The notes beneath the pieces are model-generated. The model searched no databases, had not been told where the DNA came from, and saw only the letters and a list, made by a program, of their open reading frames with translations. From assembly GCA_019313905.1 (NCBI GenBank), contig JAFDAI010000006.1:9264-73263 (forward strand): a DNA stretch of 64,000 bases. The letters are read 5' to 3'. Positions 23,336-64,000 of the stretch are shown here, piece by piece. The translations under genes and the position numbers were made by a program. The stretch comes from Deltaproteobacteria bacterium. GTDB lineage: Bacteria; Desulfobacterota; Syntrophia; Syntrophales; UBA2210. How positions within the stretch are numbered: the first letter of the stretch is position 1; the number at the start of each line of letters is the position of its first letter.

Positions 23336-23362
23336 TACACCCCAGTATTGGGGAGTTGTATC

Positions 23363-23391
23363 TTGACCGCTCCGCGTCAGTATTATATAGA
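23363..23391 (+). promoter_or_regulatory. candidate sigma-70 promoter for pgk
   Basis: TTGACC (23363-23368), N17, TATAGA (23386-23391), about 45 nt before the GTG start. Confidence 0.35.
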
Positions 23392-23435
23392 CACACAATC
23401 TCCATTCTGAACGTATACTAAATAAGGAGGAATTT

Positions 23436-24632: not shown

Positions 24633-24671
24633 CTTTTTGCTGCTACATCATAGATGATTCTATTGATTTAT

Positions 24672-24780
24672 GAGGATTTTAGTTCAAGGTCAAGGCATGC
24701 GAAAAAAATAACCGCAGGTATATAGTTAATATTCCGAGGATTATTTTTTGAGCATAACACAGAGATTGGGCGAAAAAACC
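24672..24780 (-). repeat. copy 2 of the ~100-nt structured dispersed element
   Basis: The reverse complement aligns with 8758-8858. Same hairpin architecture with compensatory substitutions. Confidence 0.6.
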
Positions 24781-24821
24781 ATTAATCAACAGCATCATGA
24801 ATTGACCGTGGACCGGACCCT

Positions 24822-45527: not shown

Positions 45528-46907
45528 TCATTTGGTGTCTTTCTTTCGAAGATTATATTTTATCATTTTCAGTTGGAGTCCTTTTCTGCTGAGGCCGAGC
45601 TTCAGGGCTGCCTTGCTGATATTCCTGTTACACTCTTCCAGGATCTTTACGATCACGCCCTTTTCTAATTGTTCCGTTTTGCTTTTAAGGATATTCCAGG
45701 GAGTCCCTTCCGATTTCGCAGTGCCAATGGTCGTTTCAGCCACAGCGGAGACATGCATCTCCGGTGGAACATCCTCAAGGGTTATCGTGTTACCCGTAGC
45801 CAGCAGCACAAGTCTTTCCATGAGATTTTCCAATTCCCTGATATTTCCGGGCCAGTTGTAGTGCGCAAAAAGCTTCCTCACCTCGGGGTCAACATGTTCT
45901 ATCCTGCGGCTGAGCTTTTTATTAAAAGTATCGAGAAAATAATCGGTAAGACGCTCTATATCACCCTTTCTCTCTCTGAGAGGAGGGAGATTTAAAGGCA
46001 ACACATTCAACCTGTAATACAAATCCTCCCTGAATCGTCCCTCTTGTACTTCCTGCAGGAGGTTCTTGTTTGTTGCCGTAATGAGCCTTACATCGATTTT
46101 TATTGTCTGAAGACCACCTACTCTTTCAAATTCCTGCTCCTGAATCACCCTGAGGATTTTTGCCTGCATATCTTTTGGCAAATCCCCAATCTCATCAAGG
46201 AAGAGAGTGCCTGTGTGGGCCAGTTCAAACCTTCCCGGTTTTTTGTTTACAGCGCCCGTAAAAGCACCTTTTTCAAAACCGAAAAGCTCGCTCTCCATCA
46301 AATTTTCCGCGATAGCCACACAATTGATTTTGATGAAAGGGTTGTTCATGCGAGGGCTGTTCATATGGATTGCACGGGCCAGAAGCTCCTTTCCAGTACC
46401 TGTTTCACCGGTAATCAGGACTGTCGTTGTAGTCGGAGCCACTTTCTCGACAAGCCTGTATATCTTTACCATGCGTTTACTGGAGCCTATAATTTCACTC
46501 TGGCCTGTTTTTCCGGGAGATGAAACCAGTTCACTTTCATTCAGTGCGCTTGTCTTAAAGGCCTTTTCTATAATATTTTTCAGGTCATCCTGATCAAAGG
46601 GTTTTGTGATGTAATCAAATGCTCCGTTCTTCAGGGCTTCCACCGCTGTTTCGACGGTGCCATGAGCGGTGATCATAATTACAGGTATTGAAGGATAATG
46701 CGCTTCTATTCTGCTAAGAAGCCCGAGACCATCAAGCCTGGGCATTTTCAGATCTGTAACGACCACAGCCACATCACCGGCTTTGAGGATATTAAGCGCT
46801 TCAAGACCGTCAGATGCCGTAACAACTTTATACTTCTCCTTTTTAAGCATGGCCTCTAAGACAAGAAGCATGTTCAGTTCATCATCAACTATCAGTATTT
46901 TTCCCAT
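45528..46907 (-). CDS. sigma-54-dependent response regulator (NtrC/AtoC family; REC + AAA+ + Fis HTH)
   Basis: ILIVDDE...D (REC), GETGTGKELLARAIH, ESELFGFEKGAFTGA (GAFTGA) and a C-terminal Fis-type HTH. Confidence 0.92.
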   Translation of the reverse strand: MGKILIVDDELNMLLVLEAMLKKEKYKVVTASDGLEALNILKAGDVAVVVTDLKMPRLDGLGLLSRIEAHYPSIPVIMITAHGTVETAVEALKNGAFDYITKPFDQDDLKNIIEKAFKTSALNESELVSSPGKTGQSEIIGSSKRMVKIYRLVEKVAPTTTTVLITGETGTGKELLARAIHMNSPRMNNPFIKINCVAIAENLMESELFGFEKGAFTGAVNKKPGRFELAHTGTLFLDEIGDLPKDMQAKILRVIQEQEFERVGGLQTIKIDVRLITATNKNLLQEVQEGRFREDLYYRLNVLPLNLPPLRERKGDIERLTDYFLDTFNKKLSRRIEHVDPEVRKLFAHYNWPGNIRELENLMERLVLLATGNTITLEDVPPEMHVSAVAETTIGTAKSEGTPWNILKSKTEQLEKGVIVKILEECNRNISKAALKLGLSRKGLQLKMIKYNLRKKDTK

Positions 46908-47027: not shown

Positions 47028-48542
47028 TCAGATCCTTATAAAAAAAGCTGTTCCCTCGCCGGGAACGGATTCAAGATCGATGCTGCCACCATGACTTCTC
47101 ATAATCCGCTGACACACGGGAAGACCAAGTCCAGTCCCCTTCTTCTTAGTTGTAAAAAAGGGTTTAAAGATATTCTTCAAATCTTTCCCTTCTATCCCGG
47201 AACCTGTATCGCGAATAGTAATTTCCACAGTCATATTTCCGTTATTTTTAATTCCGGCTGTTATAAAGCTTAAAGAACCTCCTTCCGGCATTGCTTCAAT
47301 TCCGTTAAGTGCCATATTCAGGATAACTTGTGTCATCTGTTCTCCGTCCACCTTCATGCTTGGAAGTTCGGAATCCAGATTTTCCTCAATGACTACATTT
47401 TCCGGTAGACCGGCGGTCTTGAGAAGCGATACCACTTTGGTTACGATGCGGTTTACATCCTGATTGCTCGCATCTATTGAATGAGGTCGTGCGTAGTTAA
47501 GAAATTGTGACATAACACCGTTCAGTCTGTCTGTTTCCTCTACTATCACATCAAGAAGCTTCTGGTTCTGGGGAAATTCCGTTTCTGATTTAAGGTATTG
47601 CGCGGCACCCTTGATGGCCCCCAGGGGATTTCGTATTTCATGAGCAAGACCGGTTGCCATTTCTTCCAAGAGCATCGACTTTTCTTTCTCTACCTCTTCA
47701 TCGATGGCATAGAGCGATATGGATACATCACTCCTGCCTTCAAAGAAAATATGCCCCGCAACCTTTTTTAAGATCACTTTAACCGGATCTATAAAGATAA
47801 CGATGATAAAGGATGCCATTAAAACACTGTTTAACCAACTGCTTGAATTCTTTCCGAAAAGGGCAATAACGAAGCAGAAAGTAATAGTGGCAAATAGTAC
47901 AAGGGCAAAGATGATGAGCGCCCTTACCATGATCTCGTGAATCTCCGGCAGGCGGTGGTGCGTTATGATTATCAGAATAAAATAGATCAGAGCGGCTATC
48001 GCAATATTAGACAGCGGGGGAAGAGCACTGCCATAGTAATGAAATATATCAGAAATGCTTAAGATTACAGTCAGGGCACAGGCAATGGCTATGTAAAGCA
48101 TTCCCTTTCTTTCCACGCCCGGCGTCTCTTTTTTGATAGAGTCAATAAGCGCTATGTAACAGTAAATCATAGCGGAGCCATTGTACAGATAGAGGACGAT
48201 ATGCATGTATGGCCATTTGTATCCTGACGCGAAGAGAAAGATGATGAGGAAAAGACTACCGAGTACAGTTGCCAGTATAATTTTTTTAGAGGGGAATTCT
48301 TGCCGGTTCAGGAAGGTCCGGCAAAAGGAGAGCAGGAGCGGAGGAATTACCAGGGCTCCGGTATAGTTAACTATTTTCCATGCATTGGCGTTGAAGACTT
48401 CGTAGAAAAATGTTCCGGTCTTTTGGAGAAAGAGGGCAAAACACAAAAGGGCAAAGGCCTGGTGGACAGGGCTCTTAACTTTTTTGATAAACAGAGAAAT
48501 AGCAATTGTCAGACTGATTGCTGCCAGGGCAAAGGTTTCCAT
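47028..48542 (-). CDS. membrane sensor histidine kinase (multi-TM N-terminal sensor + HisKA + HATPase_c)
   Basis: About 7 predicted TM helices, then H-box LAHEIRNPL, and N/G boxes (NALNGIEAM, DTGSGI, GTGLGL). Start placed at METFALAA. Confidence 0.85.
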   Translation of the reverse strand: METFALAAISLTIAISLFIKKVKSPVHQAFALLCFALFLQKTGTFFYEVFNANAWKIVNYTGALVIPPLLLSFCRTFLNRQEFPSKKIILATVLGSLFLIIFLFASGYKWPYMHIVLYLYNGSAMIYCYIALIDSIKKETPGVERKGMLYIAIACALTVILSISDIFHYYGSALPPLSNIAIAALIYFILIIITHHRLPEIHEIMVRALIIFALVLFATITFCFVIALFGKNSSSWLNSVLMASFIIVIFIDPVKVILKKVAGHIFFEGRSDVSISLYAIDEEVEKEKSMLLEEMATGLAHEIRNPLGAIKGAAQYLKSETEFPQNQKLLDVIVEETDRLNGVMSQFLNYARPHSIDASNQDVNRIVTKVVSLLKTAGLPENVVIEENLDSELPSMKVDGEQMTQVILNMALNGIEAMPEGGSLSFITAGIKNNGNMTVEITIRDTGSGIEGKDLKNIFKPFFTTKKKGTGLGLPVCQRIMRSHGGSIDLESVPGEGTAFFIRI

Positions 48543-48747
48543 ATATTTTTCACCATATACAATTTTCAGGCAGTTATGATATCGGCAAACAACCTGCAAG
48601 TCAAGGTAACGCAGGTGTATTGTGCGTACAACAGTTCCGGCTGCGAACAAAACTACGCACCAAAAACCGGACTTTCATATACAAACCCGGGAAAGCTCAT
48701 ATGCCAATTAGTAAGAATTCCGGAGTGTTATGCGGTATCACTACTTT

Positions 48748-48763
48748 TGGCATGGATGGTGCT
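48748..48763 (+). promoter_or_regulatory. sigma-54 (-24/-12) promoter in front of the lipid cluster
   Basis: TGGCATGGATGGTGCT, against TGGCAC-N5-TTGCW, with correct GG/GC spacing. About 100 nt upstream of the GTG at 48860 and divergent from the kinase/regulator operon. Confidence 0.55.
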
Positions 48764-48859: not shown

Positions 48860-50059
48860 GTGGATTACAAGCTTACCGATAATCAGAGAATGTACATAGA
48901 GACGGTCCAGAAGTTTGTTAAGAACGAAATTACACCAACCGTTATGGAACGTGAAGCAACCCATGAATTCCCCTTCGATATAATTAAAAAGGCATGGGAA
49001 GTTGGCGTATTGAATCTTTCTATTCCCGAATCAGTGAAGGGATATGAAGTGGACGATATTTCCGCGGCTTTAATTATCCGGGAACTGTCCTACGGTGATA
49101 CGGGTATTTCTACGTCAGCCATGTGTAATGACCTGGCGAACGTTGTAATAGCACAGCATGGAACAAAGGAGCAAAAAAAAGCTTTTCTGCTTCCCTTTGT
49201 AGAAGCTCCCCTCATTTCATCTTTCTGTCTGACTGAACCGGGTGCAGGTTCTGATAACCTGGCCATGACTGCATTTATTAGAAAAAGAGATGATGGAAAG
49301 TATATTCTGAACGGAGAAAAATCTTTCATTACCAATGCTTCATACGCCTCTCAGTTTACCGTGTTCTGCAAGGTTGGGAAACCGGGTAGCCTTCTAATGG
49401 CCTGTGTTGTTATCCCATACGATTCGATTCGTAATGGAGAAGTGGTCACTCAGCCTTCCGGTGTAAGAGAGATTACCCTGTCCACAGGAGGTACGGTAAT
49501 AACAGGAAAACCGGAAGATAAACTTGGACAGTGCCTCTCGAATACGGCAACGGTCAAGTTTGAGGATGTTGTTATCGAAGATAATCAGATTATCGGCAAC
49601 AGGAGGCTCGGCTTTCGGTATATAATTGAAGTTCTCGATTATGCGCGGCCCATGATTGCGGCCATCGGAGTCGGTCTTGCCAGGAGAGCACTGGATCTGA
49701 CACTGGAATATACGAAGGAACGCAAACAGTTCGGGCAGAGGATCTGCGATATACCCGTAGCGAGAGACATGCTGGTCAACATGTGGAAAAAAGTAGAACT
49801 GGCCGACATGGCCCTGATGAAGGCCGCATTCAAGGTCTTGGAACAGGACGAAGACAGGGGGATGTATGCTTCCCTGGCAAAAAATGTTGCAGCGGAAGCG
49901 GCCCTTTACTGCTCCAAAGAGGGGTTACACCTTCACGGTGGTTACGGTTTCATGTCGGAATATGAGATATCGAAACTGGCGCGGGATGCCCATATCATCG
50001 ATATTTATGAAGGTGTGAGGGAAATTCAGGATATGATTATAGGAAGGGAGTTGGTGTAA
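48860..50059 (+). CDS. acyl-CoA (or acyl-ACP) dehydrogenase family flavoprotein
   Basis: 399 aa. CLTEPGAGSD and C-terminal YEGVREIQ (catalytic Glu region). GTG start after AAGGAG. Confidence 0.8.
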   Translation: MDYKLTDNQRMYIETVQKFVKNEITPTVMEREATHEFPFDIIKKAWEVGVLNLSIPESVKGYEVDDISAALIIRELSYGDTGISTSAMCNDLANVVIAQHGTKEQKKAFLLPFVEAPLISSFCLTEPGAGSDNLAMTAFIRKRDDGKYILNGEKSFITNASYASQFTVFCKVGKPGSLLMACVVIPYDSIRNGEVVTQPSGVREITLSTGGTVITGKPEDKLGQCLSNTATVKFEDVVIEDNQIIGNRRLGFRYIIEVLDYARPMIAAIGVGLARRALDLTLEYTKERKQFGQRICDIPVARDMLVNMWKKVELADMALMKAAFKVLEQDEDRGMYASLAKNVAAEAALYCSKEGLHLHGGYGFMSEYEISKLARDAHIIDIYEGVREIQDMIIGRELV

Positions 50060-50061
50060 CT

Positions 50062-51048
50062 ATGTTATATCTTCATGGATTAGGTCATTTCCACCCGGAA
50101 AATGTTATTACAAACCGATTTCTGAGTGAACTGGAAATAGGAAGCAATGAGGAATGGATCATGGAGCGCGTGGGCGTTCGTACCCGCCGCACTAGCCTTT
50201 CTCTGGATTACATAAAAACGACAAAAAATGAAGACCCTCGAGCGGCTTCCGAGGCAAGTATGTACACTAACGCGCAGATGGGGGCTTTTGCAGCGCGCGT
50301 GGCGCTGGAGAGGGCCGGGTTGAAGCCTGAAGATATAGGCATGGTAATATCCGGGAGTTCGACACCGGATCATGTGACACCGGCCGAGGCCGCAACCGTG
50401 GCGGCAGAGCTTGGGGTGGATGTTCTCTGTTTTGATCTTAATTCCGCGTGTTCAACCTTTGGAATGCAGCTCAAATTTCTGTCCGACATGAAACCGGACG
50501 CGCTTCCGGCTTACGTCCTGGTTGTCAATCCGGAGAGTTTTACCCGCTCGGTTGACTATTCTGACAGGAAGGTGGCCCCGTTATTTGGTGATGGAAGCAG
50601 TGCCGCGGTTGTGTCCGCTTCCGTTCCTTCAAAAATGGTATTTGAGGCGTTCTTTTGTGATTCAAATCCCCTGTCGTGGGACAAGGTGCGTATTCCCCAC
50701 ATGGCCCACTTCGGACAGAACGGAAGAGCCGTTCAGGGTTTTGCTATACGTAAGACCACTGAATCGCTCAGGAAATTGCAGGAAATTTACCCTATAAACT
50801 CCGGCAGATTCAAGTTTGTAGGACATCAGGCAAACTATGGAATGCTGAAGACTGTATGTGAAAGATGCGGCTTAGCTGAAGACGATCACTGGCATAATGT
50901 TGTAAATTACGGCAATACGGGAGGCTCGAGTGCTCCCTGTGTCCTGAGTCAGCATTGGGACAGATTCCGTCCAGGAAACCACATAGCATTAGTTATGGTT
51001 GGCTCGGGGCTTACCTGGGGTCGCACGATGCTGAAGATTCAGGAATAA
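50062..51048 (+). CDS. KAS III (FabH-like) 3-oxoacyl-ACP synthase
   Basis: Cys-His-Asn triad contexts NSACSTFG, VGHQANYG and NYGNTGGSS. Confidence 0.8.
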   Translation: MLYLHGLGHFHPENVITNRFLSELEIGSNEEWIMERVGVRTRRTSLSLDYIKTTKNEDPRAASEASMYTNAQMGAFAARVALERAGLKPEDIGMVISGSSTPDHVTPAEAATVAAELGVDVLCFDLNSACSTFGMQLKFLSDMKPDALPAYVLVVNPESFTRSVDYSDRKVAPLFGDGSSAAVVSASVPSKMVFEAFFCDSNPLSWDKVRIPHMAHFGQNGRAVQGFAIRKTTESLRKLQEIYPINSGRFKFVGHQANYGMLKTVCERCGLAEDDHWHNVVNYGNTGGSSAPCVLSQHWDRFRPGNHIALVMVGSGLTWGRTMLKIQE

Positions 51049-51089
51049 AGGCTTCGAGCTTCAAGTTAGAAACCGGATATGGAAAAATA

Positions 51090-51686
51090 GTGAAATACTC
51101 TGAATTTATAAAAAAAGAAAGTTTTGAACTGGACGACCTGATTGCCTTTGCTTACGGACGACTGGTTGCTGATCCGCCTGAGGATTTCGATGCACGACTA
51201 CCCGCCCCCCCCTTCCTTATGGCGGATCGCATCCTTTCGATAAAGAATGACGGAAGGAAGGGATCTATTATTGCCGAGCAGGATATAAGGATAGACGCTT
51301 GGTATTTTCAGTGCCATATGCCGGGAGATCCTGTGCAGCCGGGTTGTCTTTGCGTGGATGCGATCTGGCAATTGCTCGGTTTTTACTGTAGCTGGAGTGG
51401 AGGATTGGGTGGCGGCAGAGCGCTCGGTTGCGAAGAAATCGTCTTCAACGGACAGATACGGCCATATAATCAAAAGGTTCGTTATGAAATTGACGTAAGG
51501 CGTTTTTCTCATCTTAAAGCTTCAGGTTCAAGTATTGTCATCGGAAATGGCAGAGTATTCGTGGATGACGAATTGATAATGACTATTAAAAATGCCCGCA
51601 CTGGAATCTTCAAGGGAATTGTCTATCCGGATTATCCGAAAATGTCACCCAATTCCAGGGGAGGAATTATAAAGAGAGATATATGA
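51090..51686 (+). CDS. fabA: FabA-type 3-hydroxyacyl-ACP dehydratase/isomerase
   Basis: LPAPPFLMADRI...WYFQCHMPGDPVQPGCLCVDAIWQLLGF...GRALG matches the FabA core (CHFxGDPVMPGCL). GTG start is the first plausible start after the fabH-like stop. Confidence 0.75.
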   Translation: MKYSEFIKKESFELDDLIAFAYGRLVADPPEDFDARLPAPPFLMADRILSIKNDGRKGSIIAEQDIRIDAWYFQCHMPGDPVQPGCLCVDAIWQLLGFYCSWSGGLGGGRALGCEEIVFNGQIRPYNQKVRYEIDVRRFSHLKASGSSIVIGNGRVFVDDELIMTIKNARTGIFKGIVYPDYPKMSPNSRGGIIKRDI

Positions 51687-52441
51687 ATAGGTCAAAATTA
51701 GAAATTAAAGATTCAGAATTGAAACCCGTTGCAATTGTAACCGGCGGCGGAACCGGAATAGGCGCGGCCTGTTGCCTGGCCCTTGCCGACGAAGGTTTCA
51801 GGGTGGGTATTCATTATCGGAAAAGTGAAGATCAGGCAAAGGACGTTCTCTCTCGAATAGACGATGGATTTCTTCTGAAAGCCGATCTTGCCGATGTGGA
51901 TGAAGTGGAAGAAATGTCAAAATCCATCAAGAGCGCGGCTGGTCGTGTGGACGTATTGGTCAACAATGCCGGGATATCTATTAACAGTGATATCAACACG
52001 ATGAAGGTCGGCGAGTTTGACGCACAGCGGGCGATGCTTCGCGGCACCTGGTATCTGACCAAGCGGATATTGCGCCTTTTCATGCTGCGCGGCGGCAGTG
52101 GAAGAATTATCAATATCTCCAGTGTAGTAGGGCATACCGGTAATGGCGGCCAGATTCCATACACTATGGAAAAAGCAGCACTTGATGCCTTTACCAAATC
52201 TCTGGCCAAAGAATTATGGGGACGAAATATTCTCATCAATTCCGTGGCGCCCGGGTTTATCGATACGTCCATGACGGAAATTCTTCCTGATGACGTTCGG
52301 AACAAGATTCTTGAGAACATTCCCCTGGGGCGGATGGGCCAGCCTGAAGAAGTGGCCGATGTCGTGACCTTTCTTGCCAGCCGGGGCAGCTATATTACCG
52401 GAACGGTTATTCATGTTAACGGGGGGCTGTATGGGGGTTGA
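51683..52441 (+). CDS. fabG: 3-oxoacyl-ACP reductase (SDR)
   Basis: TGGGTGIGAA, NNAG, and Y-x3-K (YTMEK). 4-nt overlap with fabA. Confidence 0.85.
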   Translation: MNRSKLEIKDSELKPVAIVTGGGTGIGAACCLALADEGFRVGIHYRKSEDQAKDVLSRIDDGFLLKADLADVDEVEEMSKSIKSAAGRVDVLVNNAGISINSDINTMKVGEFDAQRAMLRGTWYLTKRILRLFMLRGGSGRIINISSVVGHTGNGGQIPYTMEKAALDAFTKSLAKELWGRNILINSVAPGFIDTSMTEILPDDVRNKILENIPLGRMGQPEEVADVVTFLASRGSYITGTVIHVNGGLYGG

Positions 52442-52910
52442 TGCAAACATGGTGCAAAACGTACTTTCTCTGGTTCCTCAACAGCATCCGTTCCGTTTTA
52501 TTGATGACATACTGGAGATGGATGAGGATCATATCGTTGGAACATACCGCTTCCGGGACGACGAATACTTCTATAAGGGACATTTTCCCGGACAGCCGGT
52601 CACGCCCGGGGTTATTTTGATTGAAACGATGGCTCAAACCGGCGTTGTTGCCTTTGGCATATATCTGCTCATGCGGCAGGGTTTATTGTCCGGGCAGATT
52701 AAACAACTGGTTACCCTGTTTGCCATGGTTGATGGTTGTGAGTTCAACGGCATCGTCAATCCGGGAGAAAAGGTTATCATTAGAGGCGAAAAAGTCTATC
52801 TTCGCAGAGGAAACCTGAAAACGAAGGTCAGTATAGAAAGAGAAAACGGAGACATTGTCTGTTACGGAGTGCTTACCGGTAAAGGAGTTGAACTTAATGA
52901 AGAAAAATAG
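52431..52910 (+). CDS. FabZ-like hotdog 3-hydroxyacyl-ACP dehydratase
   Basis: PQQHPFRFIDDI...YFYKGHFPGQPVTPGVILIETMAQ is the FabZ His/Glu motif context. Start at 52431 or 52449. Confidence 0.75.
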   Translation: MGVDANMVQNVLSLVPQQHPFRFIDDILEMDEDHIVGTYRFRDDEYFYKGHFPGQPVTPGVILIETMAQTGVVAFGIYLLMRQGLLSGQIKQLVTLFAMVDGCEFNGIVNPGEKVIIRGEKVYLRRGNLKTKVSIERENGDIVCYGVLTGKGVELNEEK

Positions 52911-54174
52911 AGTAGTTATAACAGGAATGGGCGTTGTAGCGCCGAATGGACACGGGTTGAACGATTTCGAACAGGCCCTGCGCGATGGGCGGTCGGGAAT
53001 TAGTTTTTTCCCCAGACTGAAAGAACTCAAATTTGGATGCCAGATCGGGGGGATGCCGCATGGCTTTGACGAAGTTCGCAAGAGCTATTTCGATCATGAA
53101 AAGCTTCTCTCTCTGAACGATAATATCGGATATATATCCGTATCTGCTGTTGACGCCTGGCGTGACGCGGGATTTGACTGGTCCGACGATAACCATGAGG
53201 TAGACTGGGACACAGGCGCCATTCTCGGTTGCGGTATCGGCGGCATGGATACGATTGCCGAGAGGGTTGTTCCCATGGTTAACCAGGGCAAGACAAGACG
53301 CATGGGGAGCAGGATTGTTGAACAGGTCATGAACAGTGGTACGAGTGCCCGCGTAGGCGGTTTGTTGGGGTTGGGCAACCAGGTAACCTCCAACTCCGCT
53401 GCCTGCAGTACCGGAACAGAAGCAATTGTTAATGCGATGTTAAGAGTGCAATCGGGACTGGCAAAACGGATGCTGGCAGGTGGATCTGAAGGAGCATCGC
53501 CCTACATATGGGCGGGATTCGATTCAATGCGTGTCATTCCCCGCAAGTTCAATGACAATCCGGAGCAGGGTTCCCGTCCGATGAGCGCTTCCGCAAACGG
53601 ATTTGTTCCCGGTGCGGGAGGGGCAGTCCTGGTCCTTGAAGATCTGGAAACAGCGCTTGAACGGGGGGCTATGATTTACGCGGAAATCCTCGGAGGAAAC
53701 GTCAATAGCGGCGGGCAGAGGAACGGTGGTTCCATGACAGCGCCAAACCCTGAAGGCGTTCAGCGCTGTATCAGAAGTGCCATGGCTGATGCGGGTGTTA
53801 CCTCGCGTGAAATAGATGCCATTAATGGACACCTGACGGCGACATTTGCGGATCCGTCTGAAGTAAACAACTGGTCACTGGCTCTCGACAGGGGGCCCGG
53901 GGATTTTCCGTACATAAACTCGACAAAATCAATGATCGGTCACTGTCTCGGTGCGGCGGGAGCCATCGAAGCTGTTGCCGTTGCCCTTCAGCTATATAAA
54001 GGATTTATGCACCCGTCTGTCAATTGTGAAGATGTACATCCGGAGATTGAAGCGTTCGCGGAAAACATTCCTCATGAAGTTATGGAGTACCCGGAATTAA
54101 AAATCATGGCGAAGGCATCTTTCGGTTTTGGAGACGTGAACAGTTGCCTTATTTTCAAAAAGTGGGAAACATAA
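52897..54174 (+). CDS. elongating beta-ketoacyl-ACP synthase (KAS I/II type)
   Basis: RVVITGMGVVAPNG start, active-site Cys in NSAACSTG, His residues in INGHLTAT and KSMIGHCLGAAG. AAAGGAG RBS. Confidence 0.85.
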   Translation: MKKNRVVITGMGVVAPNGHGLNDFEQALRDGRSGISFFPRLKELKFGCQIGGMPHGFDEVRKSYFDHEKLLSLNDNIGYISVSAVDAWRDAGFDWSDDNHEVDWDTGAILGCGIGGMDTIAERVVPMVNQGKTRRMGSRIVEQVMNSGTSARVGGLLGLGNQVTSNSAACSTGTEAIVNAMLRVQSGLAKRMLAGGSEGASPYIWAGFDSMRVIPRKFNDNPEQGSRPMSASANGFVPGAGGAVLVLEDLETALERGAMIYAEILGGNVNSGGQRNGGSMTAPNPEGVQRCIRSAMADAGVTSREIDAINGHLTATFADPSEVNNWSLALDRGPGDFPYINSTKSMIGHCLGAAGAIEAVAVALQLYKGFMHPSVNCEDVHPEIEAFAENIPHEVMEYPELKIMAKASFGFGDVNSCLIFKKWET

Positions 54175-54227
54175 ATTCAATTTTGAGTTTCAAGTTAAAA
54201 GACATAAAAATTACAAGGAGAGAAATA

Positions 54228-54476
54228 ATGGAAGAAAAAGAAATTTTGCAAGAGATGGTAAATATCCTCAAACCGTACATTAAGGACCCGGCTTTGCTGG
54301 ATAATGCGACAAAAGAGACACATATCCTCGATGACCTCAAGGTCAATTCAGCGCGCCTTGTGGATATCATTATCAAATGTGAAGATGTATTTGACATTGA
54401 AATCGACGATGACGATGCCGACAAGATCAGAACCATCGGAGACGCTGTTGAAATTATTCAGAATAAATTAAGTTAG
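54228..54476 (+). CDS. dedicated acyl carrier protein
   Basis: 82-aa acidic four-helix-type protein. Putative phosphopantetheine Ser in DDLKVNSARLVD (non-canonical versus DSL). AAGGAG RBS. Confidence 0.7.
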   Translation: MEEKEILQEMVNILKPYIKDPALLDNATKETHILDDLKVNSARLVDIIIKCEDVFDIEIDDDDADKIRTIGDAVEIIQNKLS

Positions 54477-54506
54477 TCTTCAGATGGATATGAATCAGGG
54501 TAATTT

Positions 54507-55325
54507 ATGATGAAACGGACGGCAAAATTTTTCCTGTACCTGCAGCTTCTTATTGGGCGCCTGGGGGTTTTCCTTTTAGGCCCCCTTATATTTATCGCGA
54601 TAAAGCTTATAGGGTACAGGGTGAGAGATCTGAGAAAAATAAGAGGGAATGTCCTGAACCTGTTTGAAAAACACAATGGTCCCTGGGTGATATGTCCAAA
54701 TCACCTGACCATGATAGATTCAGCAGTGCTGGCCTATGCCATGGCGCCGCTGCATCGCTATATGCTTAATTACAGGTTACTTCCCTGGAATCTTCCGGAA
54801 AGAGCGAATTTCCAGAGCAATATTTTTCTGGCTGTTCTCTGTTATTTGGCGAAGTGCCTACCGATCAGCCGCGGTGGAAATCGAAAAAAAATGAAAGCCA
54901 CCATGGACAAATGCGCCTATCTCTTGAATCAGAAAGAAAGCCTGCTCATTTTTCCGGAAGGGGGACGTAGCCGGACAAGCCGTGTGGATACGGAAAACTT
55001 TTCCTATGGAGTCGGGCGTTTGATAAACAACAACCCTGATTGCAATGTCATGTGTATCTATCTGCGCGGTGATGGACAGGATAAATACAGCAATATTCCC
55101 CGTTTTGGTGAACGGTTCACTATGCGCATAGAAGCATTTCAACCTCGTACGGAAAGTACAGGATTGAAAGGACAGAGAGAATGCGCGAAGCAAATCGTAG
55201 AACAACTGGCCCAGATGGAGAAAGATTATTTTGGTAGGCAACGATATTGTAGATCTGACCGATTCCCGGACAAAAGGGAAAAGCCGGGATATGCGGTTCA
55301 TGAACAGAGTGTTCACACCGGCTGA
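54507..55325 (+). CDS. lysophospholipid/glycerol-phosphate acyltransferase (PlsC/LPLAT family)
   Basis: HX4D motif NHLTMID and FPEGGRS motif. The 3' end overlaps the next gene by 95 nt. Confidence 0.75.
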   Translation: MMKRTAKFFLYLQLLIGRLGVFLLGPLIFIAIKLIGYRVRDLRKIRGNVLNLFEKHNGPWVICPNHLTMIDSAVLAYAMAPLHRYMLNYRLLPWNLPERANFQSNIFLAVLCYLAKCLPISRGGNRKKMKATMDKCAYLLNQKESLLIFPEGGRSRTSRVDTENFSYGVGRLINNNPDCNVMCIYLRGDGQDKYSNIPRFGERFTMRIEAFQPRTESTGLKGQRECAKQIVEQLAQMEKDYFGRQRYCRSDRFPDKREKPGYAVHEQSVHTG

Positions 55326-55866
55326 ACAACTGGATATCCTGGAAAGCAGCAAACCGGATATTGTTCTCTGGAGCCTGTGGGCGGCAAAAGAAACGGGGTA
55401 CAAGGCAATAAGCAAGCTGCATCCCACCGTTTCTTCCGCACCCGGGTATTATGAAGTAAAATTGTTCTCAGCAGACGGGTCTTTGCCTGAAACGGGGGTT
55501 GTCTATACGCCTTGCGGACAGGTATCAGTCTGTTTTTTCATAAGCAGTGACCATATTCATTGTATCGGCACAACTCCGGATAGAGATACGGATTCGATCA
55601 TGTGGGATGTCCGTAAGATATACCGGCGCCGGTTTTCCCCCGATTATGAATCGGATCTTGTCCGGAATATGGCCGGGGAAAAGATAGCGCGCTATCTGAA
55701 AAAAGATTCGAAAGCCATAGAGATCATTCGTCCAAAGGGGCATCGCGGTCTCGGCCCCCCGGTAATCTATGCCGGAAAGAAAAGAACCGCAATCGACATC
55801 AGCATGAGCCACGACGGCCGGTTTGTGGCCTATGCGCTTCAGGACACAAACAATACTATTCATTAA
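55231..55866 (+). CDS. 4'-phosphopantetheinyl transferase
   Basis: GNDIVDL start and WAAKETGYKA (W..KEA..K) motif. TTG start preceded by GGAGAAAG. Confidence 0.6.
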   Translation: MVGNDIVDLTDSRTKGKSRDMRFMNRVFTPAEQLDILESSKPDIVLWSLWAAKETGYKAISKLHPTVSSAPGYYEVKLFSADGSLPETGVVYTPCGQVSVCFFISSDHIHCIGTTPDRDTDSIMWDVRKIYRRRFSPDYESDLVRNMAGEKIARYLKKDSKAIEIIRPKGHRGLGPPVIYAGKKRTAIDISMSHDGRFVAYALQDTNNTIH

Positions 55867-56056
55867 TAAAATCAATTAGTACCCATCTATCACATAGAAA
55901 ACGGGTGCCTTTATTTGAAATAAAAGAAAAGGTTTTTCGGAGAAAAGCAATTTCTTCCTGTCCTCCATAAACTCTTTCAATTATCCGGGCGTGATGATTT
56001 TTGCACTTAAGCAAAATTTGTTGTGTATTTATTTGCTTTATGGTAAATAAGCTCAC

Positions 56057-57223
56057 ATGATAATATCACGGTATCTAACAGAACCGATCCATCAGGATCT
56101 CAAAGAAAAGATGGTTTTCATTTCCGGGCCTCGGCAGGTAGGTAAAACAACTCTAGCGAAGACCTTTCTGGAAAAGAAAGAGTATCAGTATTATAACTGG
56201 GATAACCGGGCGGATCGAAAGAAGATATTAGCTGCACAGTGGCCGGCGGTTGAAAGCGTCATAGTATTTGATGAGCTTCATAAATATAAAAACTGGAAGG
56301 GCTGGATCAAGGGCGAATATGATTCTCATGGCGACCGAATCCAGTTTATCATAACAGGTAGCGCCCGATTGGATATTTACCGCAAGGGTGGAGATTCACT
56401 ACAGGGACGTTATCATGCTCATCGTTTACACGGTTTTTCAGTTGGTGAACTGCAAAAAACGAAGGCAACCCTTGTCCCCGGAAAAGAGATTGAGTTTCCC
56501 GAAAAGATTGAACAGGATCTGTTGCCTGCATTATTCCAGTTCGGTTCCTTTCCCGAGCCCTTCCTGAAGCAAAATAAGCGCGGTTTGAGAAGATGGCAGC
56601 GAGAACGCCTGGATCGTTTTTTCAGAGAAGATGTTCGTGATCTTGAAAACGTTCGGGATCTCTCGTCAATGGAACTCCTGGCGTCCATGCTCGAAGATCG
56701 TATAGGCAGTCTTCTTTCCCTCCAGTCATTGCGGGAAGATCTTGAAGTCAGCCATCGGGCGGTATCTCACTGGATGGCCATACTTGAACATTTGTATCAC
56801 TGTTTTAGTGTGACACCATTTACTCACAAATCCATACGATCGCTTAAAAAAGCTGCAAAGGTATATTTGTGGGACTGGTCTGTGGTGCCGGATAAGGGGG
56901 CCCGCTTTGAAAATCTCGTGGCATGTCACCTGTTAAAAATGAAACACGCCCTTGAAGATCAGGAGGGCTACAGAATTGGCCTTCACTACCTGAGAGATGC
57001 CGGAAAAAGAGAGGTTGATTTCCTGGTTACCGTTGAGAACAAGCCCTGGTTTGCCGTAGAATGCAAGACAGCAAGCCGGACGCCGAACCCCGCGCTCAAC
57101 TACTATGGCGAAAGACTGAAAATCCCCTACCTGTATCAGATAACACTTGAAGAGGGCGATGATACATTTAACGGCAGAGTCAGAGTGATGCCGGCCGGCA
57201 AGTTCCTGGGAGCGCTTCCATGA
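56057..57223 (+). CDS. AAA+ ATPase with DUF4143 (PD-(D/E)xK-like) C-terminal domain
   Basis: Walker A GPRQVGKTT, Walker B VIVFDELH, and C-terminal ..REVDFLV...AVECK nuclease-fold-like motif. Confidence 0.75.
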   Translation: MIISRYLTEPIHQDLKEKMVFISGPRQVGKTTLAKTFLEKKEYQYYNWDNRADRKKILAAQWPAVESVIVFDELHKYKNWKGWIKGEYDSHGDRIQFIITGSARLDIYRKGGDSLQGRYHAHRLHGFSVGELQKTKATLVPGKEIEFPEKIEQDLLPALFQFGSFPEPFLKQNKRGLRRWQRERLDRFFREDVRDLENVRDLSSMELLASMLEDRIGSLLSLQSLREDLEVSHRAVSHWMAILEHLYHCFSVTPFTHKSIRSLKKAAKVYLWDWSVVPDKGARFENLVACHLLKMKHALEDQEGYRIGLHYLRDAGKREVDFLVTVENKPWFAVECKTASRTPNPALNYYGERLKIPYLYQITLEEGDDTFNGRVRVMPAGKFLGALP

Positions 57224-57317
57224 TAAAACAAAACTCCAAGTCACCTGACACGCGCTCCAATCCTGCTCTGACAATTGTTTAGAATAATCAAGCATAAAGA
57301 ATCAAGAGGGACATAGT

Positions 57318-58838
57318 GTGAATAAAAAGAATAATAATTCGAATAATAATCATATTGAACTTTCCGGATTGTCGAATCACCTTTGGGAATCGGCAAGCAT
57401 ATTACGCGGTCCTATCGATGCGGCGGATTTCAAGACATATATTTTCCCGTTTTTATTCTTTAAGAGAATTTCAGATGTTTATGACGAAGAGATGAAAGCT
57501 GCTTTGGATGAATCCGATGGTGACCTTGAATACGCACAGTTTCCAGAAAACCATCGTTTCCAGATCCCGAATGACTGCCACTGGGAGGACATTCGAGAAA
57601 AAGGCGAAAATATCGGCTATGCGCTTCAGGAGGCCATGCGCAGTATAGAAAAGGCGAATCCCGACACTTTGCATAGTATATTTGGAGACGCTCAGTGGAC
57701 AAACAAAGACCGACTATCAGACGCACTCTTGAAAGACCTGATCGAACATTTTTCGAAATTGAGCCTTGGGAACCAAAACTGTAAAGCCGATATCCTCGGT
57801 CAATCCTATGAATATCTCATCAAAAAGTTTGCTGATCTGACGAATAAAAAGGCCGGTGAGTTCTATACGCCTCGTTCCGTTGTTGCGTTGATGGTGAGAA
57901 TACTGGCGCCGAGAGAAGGCGGAACAATCTATGATCCTGCCTGTGGAACCGGTGGAATGCTTTTAGAAGCACTGCATTATGTCAAAGAGCATGGTGGTAG
58001 TGAGAATTTGATGCTGGGAAAATTATATGGACAGGAAAAAAACCTGACAACGTCAGCCATTGCAAGAATGAATCTGTTTCTTCATGGGGCGGAAGATTTT
58101 CGCATTGAACGAGGAGATACCCTCCGCCTGCCTGCGTTCTACTCAGGCGACAGCTTGGCTACTTTTGATTGCGTCATTGCAAATCCACCTTTTTCACTCC
58201 AGAAGTGGGGTGATGAAATTTGGCAAAATGATCCGTATGGGCGAAATTTTGTAGGCTTGCCACCTGCTAAGACCGGTGATTTCGCCTGGGTTCAGCACAT
58301 GATCAAATCCATGGCACCCAAAACAGGTCGCATGGCTGTTGTTCTACCACACGGCGTACTTTTCCGCATGGCCAAAGAGGGCAAAATTCGGCGCAAACTC
58401 ATTGAAATTGATATTCTTGAGGCAGTCATTGGATTAGGACCAAATCTTTTTTACGGCACCGGCTTGGCGGCCTGTATATTGGTCTTTCGAGCAACGAAAC
58501 AACAGTCGCACCGGGAAAGGGTGCTCTTCATCGACGCATCAAAAGAATTCAAGACAGGTAGAGCACAGAACGAGCTTTTACCGGAACATATAGAGAATAT
58601 ACATGGGTGGTATGCTGATTTTCAAGATGTCGAAGGTGCTTGTCGGGTAATCACGCTCGATGAAGTCAGGGAGAATGACTACAACCTGAACATCCCACGC
58701 TACGTGGAACCGGTTATCGAAGAAGAAACCATGACCTTGGATCAGGCTATCGCAAATTTTAAAGAATCGATTGAGGCAGCATATAAAGCGGAAGATCGAC
58801 TTAAAGATTTATTGAAGCGTGAGGGTCTAATGACATGA
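57318..58838 (+). CDS. hsdM: type I restriction-modification DNA methyltransferase subunit M, copy 1
   Basis: 506 aa. HsdM_N-type start (LW..A..LRG), EFYTPRSVV, DPACGTGGML (motif I) and NPPF (motif IV). Confidence 0.9.
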   Translation: MNKKNNNSNNNHIELSGLSNHLWESASILRGPIDAADFKTYIFPFLFFKRISDVYDEEMKAALDESDGDLEYAQFPENHRFQIPNDCHWEDIREKGENIGYALQEAMRSIEKANPDTLHSIFGDAQWTNKDRLSDALLKDLIEHFSKLSLGNQNCKADILGQSYEYLIKKFADLTNKKAGEFYTPRSVVALMVRILAPREGGTIYDPACGTGGMLLEALHYVKEHGGSENLMLGKLYGQEKNLTTSAIARMNLFLHGAEDFRIERGDTLRLPAFYSGDSLATFDCVIANPPFSLQKWGDEIWQNDPYGRNFVGLPPAKTGDFAWVQHMIKSMAPKTGRMAVVLPHGVLFRMAKEGKIRRKLIEIDILEAVIGLGPNLFYGTGLAACILVFRATKQQSHRERVLFIDASKEFKTGRAQNELLPEHIENIHGWYADFQDVEGACRVITLDEVRENDYNLNIPRYVEPVIEEETMTLDQAIANFKESIEAAYKAEDRLKDLLKREGLMT

Positions 58839-61096
58839 AAGATGCACAAAAACCAGATCACATAAGTCTGAACACACTCATTAATAGACTGAAGGAAGGC
58901 CGATTCGTTATTCCGGATTTTCAGAGAGAGTTCGAATGGCGGCCTTGGGATATCAAAGATTTAATGCGATCAATCTTTCTCGATTATTACATTGGCAGCA
59001 TGTTGTTATGGAAAGGTAAAAGAGAGAATTTCAATGCCTTATCCTGCGAAATTCTCTATGGATTCGACAACAAAACCGGGCAGCATCCTTGGAACTACAA
59101 TGGTGGCAAACCGGAGTACATCGTGCTTGATGGACAACAGCGACTCACGGCTCTATATTATGCATTCATTGCGCCAGATGTACCACTGCCCAATAGGGCT
59201 AATCGTGCGGTTTATTTTATACATGTCGATAAGTTCATGGACGAACACTACGATGAAGCCTTTCAATATGATTGGCTTTCGAGGCGCTTTAATAAAATCT
59301 TGAATGATCGTAAGGTGCAGTATGATGAACATATATTTCCTCTCTCAGTGGTAGGCGCCGGGGGATGGGATTTGCCTAATTGGGTGCAAGGTTATGAGCA
59401 ATACTGGGGAAAAGCGGCGTCAGATGCCCAAGGTCGTGGCAATGCAGCAGAAGCAGAGAGTGCAAAACGACATGCTCAGAATGCGAAAGCATTCGGCGAG
59501 CACCTGAAAGGTATCACTGAAGAATATCAGATTGCATATATAGAGCTCAATAAAGACATAGCGGTCGATAAGGTTTGTGACATTTTTACCCAGATCAACA
59601 GTCGTGGTATTAGGCTTGATGTTTTCGACCTCGTCAACGCCCTGATTAAGCCAAAGGGACTTCAGCTCAAACACATGTGGAGAAAAGCGGCGCCCCGCTT
59701 AGAGTTTGTTGATACGGAAAAGATGAATGTCTATATTTTGCAGGTAATGTCAATCTTGCGACAGTCTTACTGCTCTCCAAAATATCTCTATTATTTGCTT
59801 CCCGGTCAGGAAAAACAGGTAAGAGACCCCGATGGCACAAAAAGAAAAGAAGTCCTCATACCGGACATCGTTGATTTCGAGAAGCGATGGGATGAGGCCG
59901 TAGTTGCACTTGAGAATGCGATCAGGCTCTTACGACATCCACAAGAGTTTGGAGCTGTTTCGTCACAATACCTGCCTTATGTTTCCGTTCTTCCCGTTTT
60001 TGCAGCCTTGCAGGCGCAAAGCACAACCCTGCCCGCCAACAAGCGGCTTGATGCCCAGCGCAAAATCCGTTATTGGTACTGGGCATCGGTGTTCATAAAC
60101 CGTTATTCAGGCTCTGTTGAGTCGACAAGTGCCCGTGATTTCCTTGATGTAAAGGCATGGTTAGAAGATGATGCTGCCGAACCTGTGCTATTACAGGAGT
60201 TCAAGATCCATTTCAAGAATCTGGAGTTACGCAAAGAAAACAAGAAAGGCACTTCTGTTTACAACGGCATATTTAACTTGCTTGTTCTTCAGGGCGCTCG
60301 GGACTGGATGACTGGCAATGTTCCGCAATATGATGATCTTGATGACCACCATATTGTGCCCGCCTCTTGGGGGGCAAGGAATCTGGGAAACAACTCTGTT
60401 CACACAATCCTTAACAGAACCCCGTTGAGTGCTGATACCAATAGGAATATTATTAACGATAGATTGCCTAATGAATATCTACCAGAACTGATCTCAAACA
60501 ATGGGGAGAAGGCTGTGCGCGCTATCCTCGAGTCGCACTTTATATCGCAAGTGGCGCAGGAAATCTTAATGCGCGATCCGTTTACTCCTGATGATTTTGA
60601 GGCATTTATTTCTGAGCGCCAGCGCACTATTCAAGATGCCATAGAGAATCTACTAATCAAAGAGCGTCTGGATCTTTCGCCTCAGCTCCGTGAGTTGGAT
60701 GAGAACATTGAACAAACAGAACTTGGCTTACGCCAGATAATTGTCAAAACCTTTGGCGAAGATGCCTCACAACTTCCTCAACACATTCAACAAAAAGTCG
60801 GTGAAAGAATTCAAGGTGCAGCTAAGAAAAATCCCGCTATGGATACGGAACGGTATCAAACCCTTCCCGGCATGATTGAGTTCTTTGACCTGCGGGACCT
60901 TCAGGACGCAATTACATCCAAGACATATTGGGCACAATTCGAATCAAGATTCTCTAATAAAGAAATGCTTATGGCAAAGTTCAGTCAACTAGTAGGGCTC
61001 AGGAATGTCATTCGCCATAGCCGTACAGTCGACGATATTACCAGGAAAGAGGGCGAGGCAGCGATTCTTTGGTTTAAACAGGTCTTGGGGAAATGA
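58835..61096 (+). CDS. DUF262 (ParB/GmrS-like) + His-Me finger (DUF1524-like) + C-terminal Swt1-like HEPN fusion protein
   Basis: IPDFQREFEW and DGQQRLT (aa 99-105, nt 59129-59149). DDHHIVP...N...N (His pair at nt 60347-60352). LRNVIRHS Rx4H HEPN motif (nt 61001-61018). ATGA overlaps at both ends. Confidence 0.7.
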   Translation: MKDAQKPDHISLNTLINRLKEGRFVIPDFQREFEWRPWDIKDLMRSIFLDYYIGSMLLWKGKRENFNALSCEILYGFDNKTGQHPWNYNGGKPEYIVLDGQQRLTALYYAFIAPDVPLPNRANRAVYFIHVDKFMDEHYDEAFQYDWLSRRFNKILNDRKVQYDEHIFPLSVVGAGGWDLPNWVQGYEQYWGKAASDAQGRGNAAEAESAKRHAQNAKAFGEHLKGITEEYQIAYIELNKDIAVDKVCDIFTQINSRGIRLDVFDLVNALIKPKGLQLKHMWRKAAPRLEFVDTEKMNVYILQVMSILRQSYCSPKYLYYLLPGQEKQVRDPDGTKRKEVLIPDIVDFEKRWDEAVVALENAIRLLRHPQEFGAVSSQYLPYVSVLPVFAALQAQSTTLPANKRLDAQRKIRYWYWASVFINRYSGSVESTSARDFLDVKAWLEDDAAEPVLLQEFKIHFKNLELRKENKKGTSVYNGIFNLLVLQGARDWMTGNVPQYDDLDDHHIVPASWGARNLGNNSVHTILNRTPLSADTNRNIINDRLPNEYLPELISNNGEKAVRAILESHFISQVAQEILMRDPFTPDDFEAFISERQRTIQDAIENLLIKERLDLSPQLRELDENIEQTELGLRQIIVKTFGEDASQLPQHIQQKVGERIQGAAKKNPAMDTERYQTLPGMIEFFDLRDLQDAITSKTYWAQFESRFSNKEMLMAKFSQLVGLRNVIRHSRTVDDITRKEGEAAILWFKQVLGK

Positions 61097-63922: not shown

Positions 63923-64000
63923 GCATACTCGAAGATCTCGCTCGGTGGGTAGAAAAAAAGCCTTTGGTTTTGATGAGATTTGACAAGGAATTTGCTGAGT
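63919..64000 (+). CDS. 5' end of a further coupled ORF, function unknown (runs off the right edge)
   Basis: ATGA overlap with the preceding stop. Manual translation gives MSILEDLARWVEKKPLVLMRFDKEFAE.... Only 27 codons are visible. Confidence 0.35.
   Translation, partial: MSILEDLARWVEKKPLVLMRFDKEFAE

Follow-up and report, generated by a model that had tools for sequence, protein, structure and literature searches.

Few bacterial pathways have been charted as well as type II fatty acid synthesis (FAS II), which is also targeted by antibiotics. Besides it, dedicated clusters encoding an acyl carrier protein (ACP), a β-ketoacyl-ACP synthase (KAS), a dehydratase and an acyltransferase are known to make specialized lipids. 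Here, we describe a nine-gene operon found at positions 48860 to 55866 of a 64,000-nucleotide (nt) stretch of DNA (hereafter, the window) that covers positions 9,264 to 73,263, forward strand, of contig JAFDAI010000006.1 (assembly GCA_019313905.1) from a deltaproteobacterium of the order Syntrophales. From sequence comparison, we read it, with a probability of about 0.55, as a second FAS II typical of Syntrophales, regulated by sigma-54 and a two-component system, which would build cis-unsaturated chains on a private ACP and insert them directly into glycerolipids.

Like the FAS II of Escherichia coli, the operon has discrete KAS III, KAS I/II, FabG, FabZ, FabA and ACP proteins with intact catalytic residues; its FabA shares 43% identity with the E. 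coli enzyme, and the operons of most relatives start with a FabD. It differs from the E. coli system in that its genes form a single, apparently sigma-54-controlled unit with its own phosphopantetheinyl transferase (PPTase) and acyltransferase, in that FabI, FabK, FabL and FabV are missing while a protein of the acyl-CoA dehydrogenase (ACAD) family stands at the head, and in that the KAS is an orthologue of neither FabB nor FabF. In addition, the ACP helix reads NSARLVD instead of DSLDxVE, and the whole unit runs parallel to a separate acpP-fabF-fabG set.

The rhizobial acpXL-fabZXL-fabF1XL/fabF2XL-adhA2XL-lpxXL cluster, which makes a very-long-chain acyl chain of lipid A, follows the same logic, with a dedicated ACP, dehydratase and KAS leading to an acyltransferase that acts on a lipid. 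However, the acyltransferase of the operon matches only PF01553 and does not belong to the LpxL family (PF03279), there is one KAS instead of a FabF1/FabF2 pair, an alcohol dehydrogenase is missing, and the lpx genes are unlinked, sitting on contig C75. Conversely, the rhizobial cluster is devoid of the KAS III, FabA, ACAD and PPTase that are present here. With the aryl-polyene (ape) and flexirubin clusters, the operon shares the ACP, a KAS III-like initiator, a KAS, a ketoreductase (KR), two hotdog dehydratases and the PF01553 acyltransferase, the lipid-anchoring enzyme of aryl-polyene clusters, as well as the lack of an enoyl reductase of any known class. Unlike them, it encodes an ACAD and a FabA close to the fatty acid enzyme. 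Neither the window nor ten related loci contained a chain-length-factor KAS, an aryl-starter AMP ligase/TAL or a thioesterase, and neither LolA/MMPL export nor glycosyltransferase nor methyltransferase genes appeared there. The likeness to the acpXL-lpxXL and aryl-polyene clusters drawn in the original prediction, which was made from the window alone, is thus one of analogy only, as none of the defining genes turned up when searched for. A further parallel is provided by PA3286 and RsFabW (PMC4549310). Like these enzymes, the KAS III of the operon could prime from an acyl-CoA of β-oxidation to give 3-oxodecanoyl-ACP, the branch point toward unsaturated chains, although they are single genes feeding the housekeeping AcpP pathway, whereas the operon KAS III belongs to a complete private one.

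Gene content and catalytic residues of the operon

The operon and the regulatory elements beside it are listed below by position in the window, strand and identity (aa, amino acids).

48860 to 50059, +, ACAD-family flavoprotein, 399 aa, first of the nine genes (PF02771, PF02770 and PF00441, over cut-offs)
50062 to 51048, +, KAS III, FabH-like and initiating, 328 aa (Pfam ACP_syn_III and ACP_syn_III_C)
51090 to 51686, +, FabA-type 3-hydroxyacyl-ACP dehydratase, 198 aa (GTG start, corrected from 50955)
51683 to 52441, +, FabG-type 3-oxoacyl-ACP reductase, 252 aa (Pfam adh_short_C2, 180 bits)
52431 to 52910, +, FabZ-like hotdog dehydratase, 159 aa (Pfam FabA domain; start corrected from 52374)
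52897 to 54174, +, elongating KAS of the I/II type, 425 aa (Pfam ketoacyl-synt, N- and C-terminal domains; start corrected from 52855)
54228 to 54476, +, dedicated ACP, 82 aa (Pfam PP-binding, 23.2 bits, cut-off 20.8; start corrected from 54144)
54507 to 55325, +, membrane-anchored acyltransferase of the GPAT/AGPAT fold, 272 aa (PF01553, 54.8 bits; N-terminal helix)
55231 to 55866, +, AcpS-like PPTase, 211 aa (PF01648, 43.2 bits, cut-off 25, residues 2 to 62; TTG start)
48748 to 48763, +, sigma-54 type -24/-12 promoter element TGGCATGGATGGTGCT, read from the sequence, 97 nt upstream of the ACAD start
47028 to 48650, -, sensor histidine kinase with an N-terminal seven-transmembrane (7TM) module (HisKA_7TM, 32.9 bits, cut-off 28.6; HisKA; HATPase_c)
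45528 to 46907, -, NtrC-type sigma-54-dependent response regulator (Pfam Response_reg, Sigma54_activat and HTH_8; NCBIfam AtoC/NtrC-like)

The open reading frame (ORF) listing and the Pfam and NCBIfam scans bore out the nine co-directional genes and their predicted domains, in the order ACAD, KAS III, FabA, FabG, FabZ-like, KAS I/II, ACP, PF01553 acyltransferase and PPTase. Four starts of the ORF track (FabA, FabZ-like, KAS and ACP) were shifted by comparison with orthologues and by ribosome-binding sites. The overlap of KAS III and FabA in that track was an artifact of choosing the longest ORF, with FabA starting at 51090 and not at 50955. The resulting spacings along the operon are +2, +41, -4, -11, -14, +53, +30 and -95 nt, and sigma-70 promoter-like and terminator-like sites within it were no more frequent than in shuffled sequence.

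Every catalytic residue that was checked, by alignment to the E. coli K-12 reference proteins, is intact. Thus, the KAS III has the Cys130-His255-Asn285 triad, FabG has Ser147-Tyr160-Lys164, the FabZ-like protein has His51 and Glu65, FabA has His76 and Asp90, and the elongating KAS has Cys170-His312-His349. Scores against the curated models fell mostly below the cut-offs, with 148 to 154 bits for KAS III (TIGR00747, cut-off 292), 240 for FabG (TIGR01830, cut-off 298) and 76.5 for the FabZ-like protein (TIGR01750, cut-off 155). FabA, with 133 bits for PF07977, passed NF003509 (197.8, cut-off 124) and fell under TIGR01749 (154, cut-off 238). Its orthologues are 196 to 198 aa long, and the protein is probably also an isomerase. 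FabG is 43% identical to the housekeeping FabG encoded on contig C170.

The elongating KAS was about equally distant from FabB and FabF, with 35% identity to E. coli FabB, 32% to E. coli FabF and 34% to the FabF of its own genome, and it scored far under the cut-offs of both the fabF (291 bits) and the FabB (250 bits) models. In a KAS phylogeny, of the kind that the original prediction had proposed, the KAS proteins of the cluster formed a separate clade with support of 100/100. Assignment of this clade to FabB or FabF by the tree was discarded, given its very long stem and a join to E. coli FabB flagged as possible long-branch attraction.

A private carrier with its own activating enzyme and acyltransferase

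The ACP scored under the cut-offs of all NCBIfam ACP models and is strongly acidic (isoelectric point of 4.26, net charge of -11). We aligned it with 11 orthologues, E. coli AcpP and the AcpP of its own genome. The unusual context of the attachment serine that had been pointed out before was confirmed by this alignment, DDLKVNSARLVD being invariant in the 12 cluster ACPs down to 49% identity. At the attachment site, E. coli AcpP and the genome's own AcpP read DLGADSLDxVEL, while the cluster ACPs have NSARLVD in the recognition helix, and a 9-aa insertion is found in their first loop. Helix II of ACPs is the docking helix for the FAS enzymes and for AcpS. With the acidic residues of this helix replaced, the ACP has the look of an insulated, private carrier, which would need its own PPTase.

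Such a PPTase is encoded by the last gene. Its motifs GNDIVDL, WAAKETGYK and IDISMSHDG are conserved and follow the order of AcpS, and an insertion of about 85 aa accounts for the atypical length of 211 aa; TIGR00556 stayed under its cut-off. The AlphaFold2 model (predicted local distance difference test score [pLDDT] of 84.8) matched AcpS, the PPT domain of fungal FAS and AASDHPPT. In the acyltransferase, NHLTMID (the NHxxxxD motif) and FPEGGRS were invariant in 33 homologues. This protein scored under the cut-off of TIGR00530 and had no match among PDB sequences at an E value of ≤1, while its AlphaFold2 model (pLDDT of 79.9) matched human GPAT1 and mycobacterial PatA with a probability of 1.0. 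ACP, KAS and PPTase all belong to divergent families of their own. Together, the private ACP, the PPTase and the terminal acyltransferase uphold the initial description of a self-contained FAS-like unit.

The 95 nt by which the acyltransferase frame was said to enter the PPTase gene proved real, as an out-of-frame overlap (55231 to 55325) that is conserved, measuring 80 to 98 nt in most Syntrophales copies. The N-terminal [LIV]GNDIVDL motif of the PPTase sits within it. The acyltransferase tail encoded there is poorly conserved, is predicted to be disordered at residues 248 to 272 (pLDDT of <50) and is missing in two of the genomes carrying the operon (G272 and G183), so that it looks like read-on into the next gene and probably not like a functional extension.

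Predicted regulation of the operon

The kinase and the regulator, with its receiver, AAA+ and HTH_8 domains, are divergent from the operon. The kinase has no large extracytoplasmic domain, and its position beside the operon is conserved, the pair adjoining it in six Syntrophales loci (L004, L005, L016, L034, L035 and L036). A TGGCA[CT]-N5-xTGCT element was found 5' of the first operon gene in eight of ten loci, including that of Syntrophus gentianae. Based on this conserved promoter and the neighboring regulators, the operon is predicted to be under sigma-54 and two-component control.

A PEP-CTERM gene also lies near the operon. An exosortase link was rejected, as this gene is not conserved beside the operon in relatives and as the kinase and the regulator are generic NtrC/AtoSC-like proteins, below the PrsK/PrsR cut-offs.

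Distribution and variants

The comparison across genomes that had been suggested for this cluster showed it to be conserved in Syntrophales. The same gene order was found in at least 10 other genomes at 50 to 99% protein identity, the cultured S. gentianae among them, and therefore the arrangement is not due to chance. Homologues of the acyltransferase number more than 1,000, almost all from Syntrophales or from metagenome-assembled genomes (MAGs) labeled "Deltaproteobacteria," and the gene was present in 13 genomes of a 301-genome sample of the phylum. Among metagenomes, operon sequence turned up only in contigs from hydrothermal vents, cold seeps, brine and sediment.

Synteny was compared in 14 loci. 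The locus of S. gentianae has the divergent regulator and kinase followed by FabD, ACAD, KAS III, FabA, FabG, FabZ-like, KAS, ACP, acyltransferase and PPTase, and this ten-gene form with a leading fabD is the Syntrophales standard; a fabD gene comes first in S. gentianae, G022, G036, G038, G272 and G333. Hence, the prediction that fabD, acc and plsX are absent was right for the copy in the window, yet fabD leads the operon in most relatives. The genus of the window has lost it, and no cluster-type FabD orthologue is found elsewhere in the window genome, so the housekeeping FabD on contig C124 must serve the operon.

Other loci depart from the standard form in different ways. G272 has no ACAD. 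G183 has a short-chain dehydrogenase/reductase (SDR), KAS III, FabA, FabZ-like, KAS, ACP, acyltransferase and PPTase, and G085 and G333 are reduced to KR, FabZ-like, KAS, ACP, acyltransferase and PPTase, with or without FabD. G038 is missing FabA and has gained a carboxyltransferase, a 490-aa protein encoded between FabD and ACAD (G038:C20, 3677 to 5149) with HMGL-like and PYC_OADA domains, which resembles the oxaloacetate decarboxylase alpha subunit or the transcarboxylase 5S subunit. It may be a built-in malonyl-CoA supply; the window genome shows no AccA-type carboxylase. From this map of variants, the invariant core consists of KR, FabZ-like, KAS, ACP, acyltransferase and PPTase, and FabD, ACAD, KAS III and FabA are optional modules. 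One additional genome, G034, encodes a cluster-type KAS III and KAS about 0.8 kb apart (C77:45382-48418) and has no match to FabZ or FabA, which suggests a further reduced variant without dehydratases.

Downstream, the operon of the window is followed by an AAA_14/DUF4143 ATPase gene and a restriction/defense island with two hsdM genes, GmrSD and Schlafen (56057 to 64000), unrelated to it. The downstream neighbor differed at every locus compared, namely, Mla genes in S. gentianae, an ABC transporter and an AMP-ligase in G183, a sulfatase in G085 and a Memo-like gene in G022. No functional clue comes from these 3' neighbors, and because they change in every relative, the 3' edge looks like an insertion hotspot.

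Accessory or housekeeping fatty acid synthesis

The window genome is a 2.45-Mb MAG with a completeness of 98.8%. Its housekeeping set lies on contig C170 as yceD-rpmF-fabG-acpP-fabF (fabG-acpP-fabF at 23019 to 25406), with fabD on contig C124 and three PlsC-like genes elsewhere. Queries with E. coli FabI, PlsX, PlsY and AccA gave no convincing match in the genome. On contig C124 (6154 to 9789), an acylating aldehyde dehydrogenase gene (466 aa, SauS/EutE-like) and a gene for a divergent 79-aa ACP face fabD and a Sfp/PptT-like PPTase gene; this locus could be an acyl-ACP reductase system yielding fatty aldehydes.

The original prediction had taken the lack of any other fab set in the genome as the sign of a housekeeping system, and here the genome gives a divided answer. 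A separate fabG-acpP-fabF set and fabD do exist, and to this extent the accessory nature stands, but FabH, FabZ and FabA are encoded only in the operon. Its KAS III is the sole strong KAS III match in the genome, and we found no FabZ, FabA or KAS III outside it, tblastn with the E. coli proteins being in agreement, which weighs against a purely accessory role. On contig C75 (lpxD-lpxA-lpxB, 53404 to 56595), lpxD and lpxA are side by side without a fabZ between them.

We extended this survey to 41 Syntrophales genomes, using the cut-offs of curated models for canonical FabZ and FabH. Canonical FabZ was over the cut-off in none of them. The FabZ-like and FabA pair of the operon, about 1.3 kb apart, was the only one in 32 genomes, and neither protein was found in the other nine. 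Canonical FabH passed its cut-off in a single genome, two more reached 270 to 277 bits, and the others had only the KAS III of the operon or none. Syntrophales still keep AcpP, a highly conserved FabF, FabG, FabD and the lipid A genes, although canonical FabZ appears to be missing from the order and canonical FabH from most of it. To our knowledge, the only precedent for a FAS II without FabZ is mycobacterial HadABC. Initiation independent of FabH, by FabB or by malonyl-ACP decarboxylation, does have precedent (PMC10869286).

These data bring up the alternative that the operon is the primary FAS or an essential part of it, with the fabG-acpP-fabF genes beside rpmF relying on its FabH, FabZ and FabA, in which case lipid A and phospholipids, too, would draw their 3-hydroxyacyl-ACP and acyl-ACP from it. 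The exclusive presence of these homologues in the operon, the lpx region devoid of fabZ and the counts for canonical FabZ (0/41) and FabH (1/41 and two close) all speak for it, and so does the use of the housekeeping FabD by the operon in the genus of the window, by which the two systems already cross-talk. We nevertheless consider it unlikely. Of the nine genomes (of 41) from which the operon, and with it FabZ and FabA, is missing, seven have a completeness of 92% or more and three belong to the genus of the window, so that the operon is patchy even within the genus (missing from 3 of 13 members). Eight of the nine are also without KAS III, G034 being the one that keeps it, and in all eight that were checked, a single canonical FabF was retained at 610 to 633 bits. 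Therefore, the core AcpP/FabF set works without the operon, which is dispensable at the genus level. Moreover, a housekeeping FAS would not usually come with a sensor kinase of its own and a sigma-54 promoter, while the altered recognition helix of the ACP and the presence of its own PPTase and acyltransferase argue for insulation from AcpP. Finally, the core operon coexists with canonical FabZ in other families, as four carriers outside Syntrophales also hold a FabZ over the cut-off.

As a whole, the canonical FabF of operon-free relatives, the patchiness within the genus, the coexistence with FabZ and the divergence of ACP, KAS and PPTase favor an accessory role. It is not safe to call the operon purely accessory, though: since the Syntrophales genomes surveyed are all without canonical FabZ and nearly all without canonical FabH, the dehydratases and the KAS III may also support the core pathway in the genomes that carry them.

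The enoyl reduction step

No FabI, FabK, FabL or FabV was detected within the operon by the Pfam and NCBIfam scans, and the rest of the genome had neither FabI nor FabV. A FabK-like gene is found on contig C57 (332 bits, cut-off 453), and the genome has two NMO paralogues. A FabI candidate on contig C49 was rejected, as it had 35% identity to FabG versus 26% to FabI and was a generic SDR by NCBIfam.

The head of the operon offers a possible solution. The ACAD keeps the catalytic glutamate, with an IYEG motif that aligns to Glu376 of medium-chain acyl-CoA dehydrogenase (MCAD), and about 19 extra aa are inserted into its β domain. It reached no equivalog cut-off; the best NCBIfam match was the acryloyl-CoA reductase AcrC (246 bits, far under the cut-off), and the best PDB matches were MCAD (235 bits), followed by Bcd and CarC. 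Its nearest relatives are therefore MCAD and the Bcd/EtfAB, AcrC and CarC systems, the last three showing that the ACAD fold can run reductively in anaerobes. They act on coenzyme A (CoA) esters in catabolism or fermentation, usually beside etfAB, whereas this ACAD has no adjacent electron transfer flavoprotein (ETF). The best paralogue in the genome is 32% identical, one of nine tblastn matches on seven other contigs, and there are three EtfAB pairs. Among the paralogues, one lies beside a FabK/NMO-family gene (C102:1736-4128) and another beside an EtfAB pair (C53:6573-9129), both of them possible points of comparison for the operon ACAD.

The earlier suggestion that the dehydrogenase modifies the chain further left out a role as enoyl reductase, which is possible instead, given that the operon has no reductase of a known class. 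Within the model of a regulated second FAS, we tentatively propose, at odds somewhat short of even, that the ACAD is a candidate enoyl reductase drawing electrons from an EtfAB pair. Its conserved first position, 2 nt ahead of KAS III, the reductive and ETF-linked nature of AcrC, Bcd and CarC, and the lack of an ACAD in those operon variants whose genomes also have a canonical FAS II all favor this role. Several facts count against it, namely, the absence of an ETF gene from the operon, the FabK-like gene elsewhere in the genome, the best structural relative being MCAD, an oxidative and CoA-dependent enzyme, and the otherwise full variant of G272, which is devoid of both an ACAD and any other enoyl reductase and thus indicates that the step can be supplied in trans. 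A replacement reductase in the ACAD-free G085 and G183 would have favored the ACAD by mutual exclusion, but the extra SDR is the sole SDR there and likelier a ketoreductase. Enoyl reduction would then be carried out either by the ACAD with ETF or by the FabK-like enzyme in trans.

The relationship to MCAD (with the catalytic glutamate kept) could also be taken at face value. The ACAD would then oxidize saturated medium-chain acyl-CoA or acyl-ACP from β-oxidation to trans-2-enoyl thioesters, which FabA would isomerize and the KAS, FabG, the FabZ-like protein and FabK in trans would elongate, giving unsaturated chains without oxygen. Syntrophales are β-oxidizers rich in ACAD paralogues and ETFs, the genome can provide a FabK-like reductase in trans, and the feeding of octanoyl-CoA into FAS II by KAS III enzymes has precedent in PA3286 and RsFabW (PMC4549310). 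However, KAS III and FabG already supply FabA with 3-hydroxyacyl-ACP, which would make the ACAD redundant; the ACAD and FabA are no obligate pair, G038 having the former without the latter and G272 the reverse; and no result points to a chain-length or carrier specificity. We regard this salvage shunt as quite improbable.

The missing reductase might, alternatively, mean that none is needed, the product being a lipid-anchored conjugated polyene or polyketide-like pigment or lipid, or a specialized 3-hydroxy or 2-enoyl acyl chain. The composition of the minimal variants, with KR, FabZ-like, KAS, ACP, acyltransferase and PPTase only, would be compatible with this, as would the weak ApeI/ApeP-like Pfam matches of the S. 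gentianae hotdog proteins and the lipid-anchoring role of PF01553 acyltransferases in aryl-polyene clusters. Set against them are the absence of aryl-polyene-type hallmark genes from the window and the ten related loci, a FabA near true fatty acid FabA proteins (43% identity, over the NF003509 cut-off) and the combination of KAS III with a single KAS, which is the pattern of FAS. Such a product appears very improbable.

A more far-reaching proposal combines several of these points. In it, the ACAD would represent a new, ETF-dependent class of enoyl-ACP reductase and the operon, switched by sigma-54, would be the only complete ACP-based FAS of Syntrophales, other acyl chains coming from a truncated AcpP/FabF/FabG half-cycle together with reversed β-oxidation or a further kind of dehydratase. 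Canonical FabZ, FabH and FabI would have been dispensed with in the order, and PlsX is undetectable in the window genome. Taken jointly, these statements are unlikely to hold.

Proposed function

Under the reading that we prefer, a regulated second FAS II, the AcpS-like PPTase would activate the dedicated ACP, and the housekeeping FabD would load malonyl groups onto it. KAS III would prime with an acyl-CoA, maybe a medium-chain intermediate of β-oxidation as with PA3286 and RsFabW, after which FabG and FabA would produce the cis-3-enoyl-ACP branch point for extension by the dedicated KAS. Later cycles would be completed by the FabZ-like protein, FabG and the enoyl reductase, be it the ETF-linked ACAD or the FabK-like enzyme encoded elsewhere. 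The product would probably be cis-unsaturated chains on the private ACP, and the acyltransferase would transfer the finished chain, probably cis-monounsaturated, from this carrier to glycerol-3-phosphate or a lysophospholipid. Upon a membrane or envelope signal, the operon would be turned on by the 7TM kinase and the NtrC-type activator, a control that would make it a lipid-remodeling module.

Some of our results weigh against parts of this model. Unsaturation is indicated by FabA as the single element, the KAS is no FabB orthologue (NF005935, 250 bits against a cut-off of 630), its placement in the tree is unreliable, and FabA is absent from the G038 variant. The fold matches of the acyltransferase, whose glycerolipid acceptor is putative, are modest (template modeling scores of 0.40 to 0.45). 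The membrane or envelope signal of the kinase is suggested by domain architecture only, and none of the RNA runs searched contained the operon sequence.

In the full-text literature on the cluster, on Syntrophus lipid biosynthesis and on ACAD-type enoyl-ACP reductases, we found no paper describing this operon. New here are the order-wide lack of canonical FabZ and FabH, the tests of dispensability and coexistence, the map of variants, the conserved promoter, the corrected starts and the confirmation of acyltransferase and PPTase at the fold level.

The enoyl reductase step of FAS II has undergone repeated non-orthologous replacement (FabI, FabK, FabL and FabV). A conserved operon that covers FAS II in full apart from a reductase of known class, and with an ACAD in the leading position, is a testable candidate for a further reductase class, which, if true, would link the lipid synthesis of energy-limited syntrophs to low-potential electron carriers and ETF. 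An entire order apparently without canonical FabZ and FabH also bears on how acyl chains are dehydrated and initiated on AcpP. Finally, control by a kinase and sigma-54 suggests an anaerobic counterpart of membrane homeostasis of the DesK/DesR type, relevant to the hydrothermal and cold-seep sediments where the operon DNA occurs.

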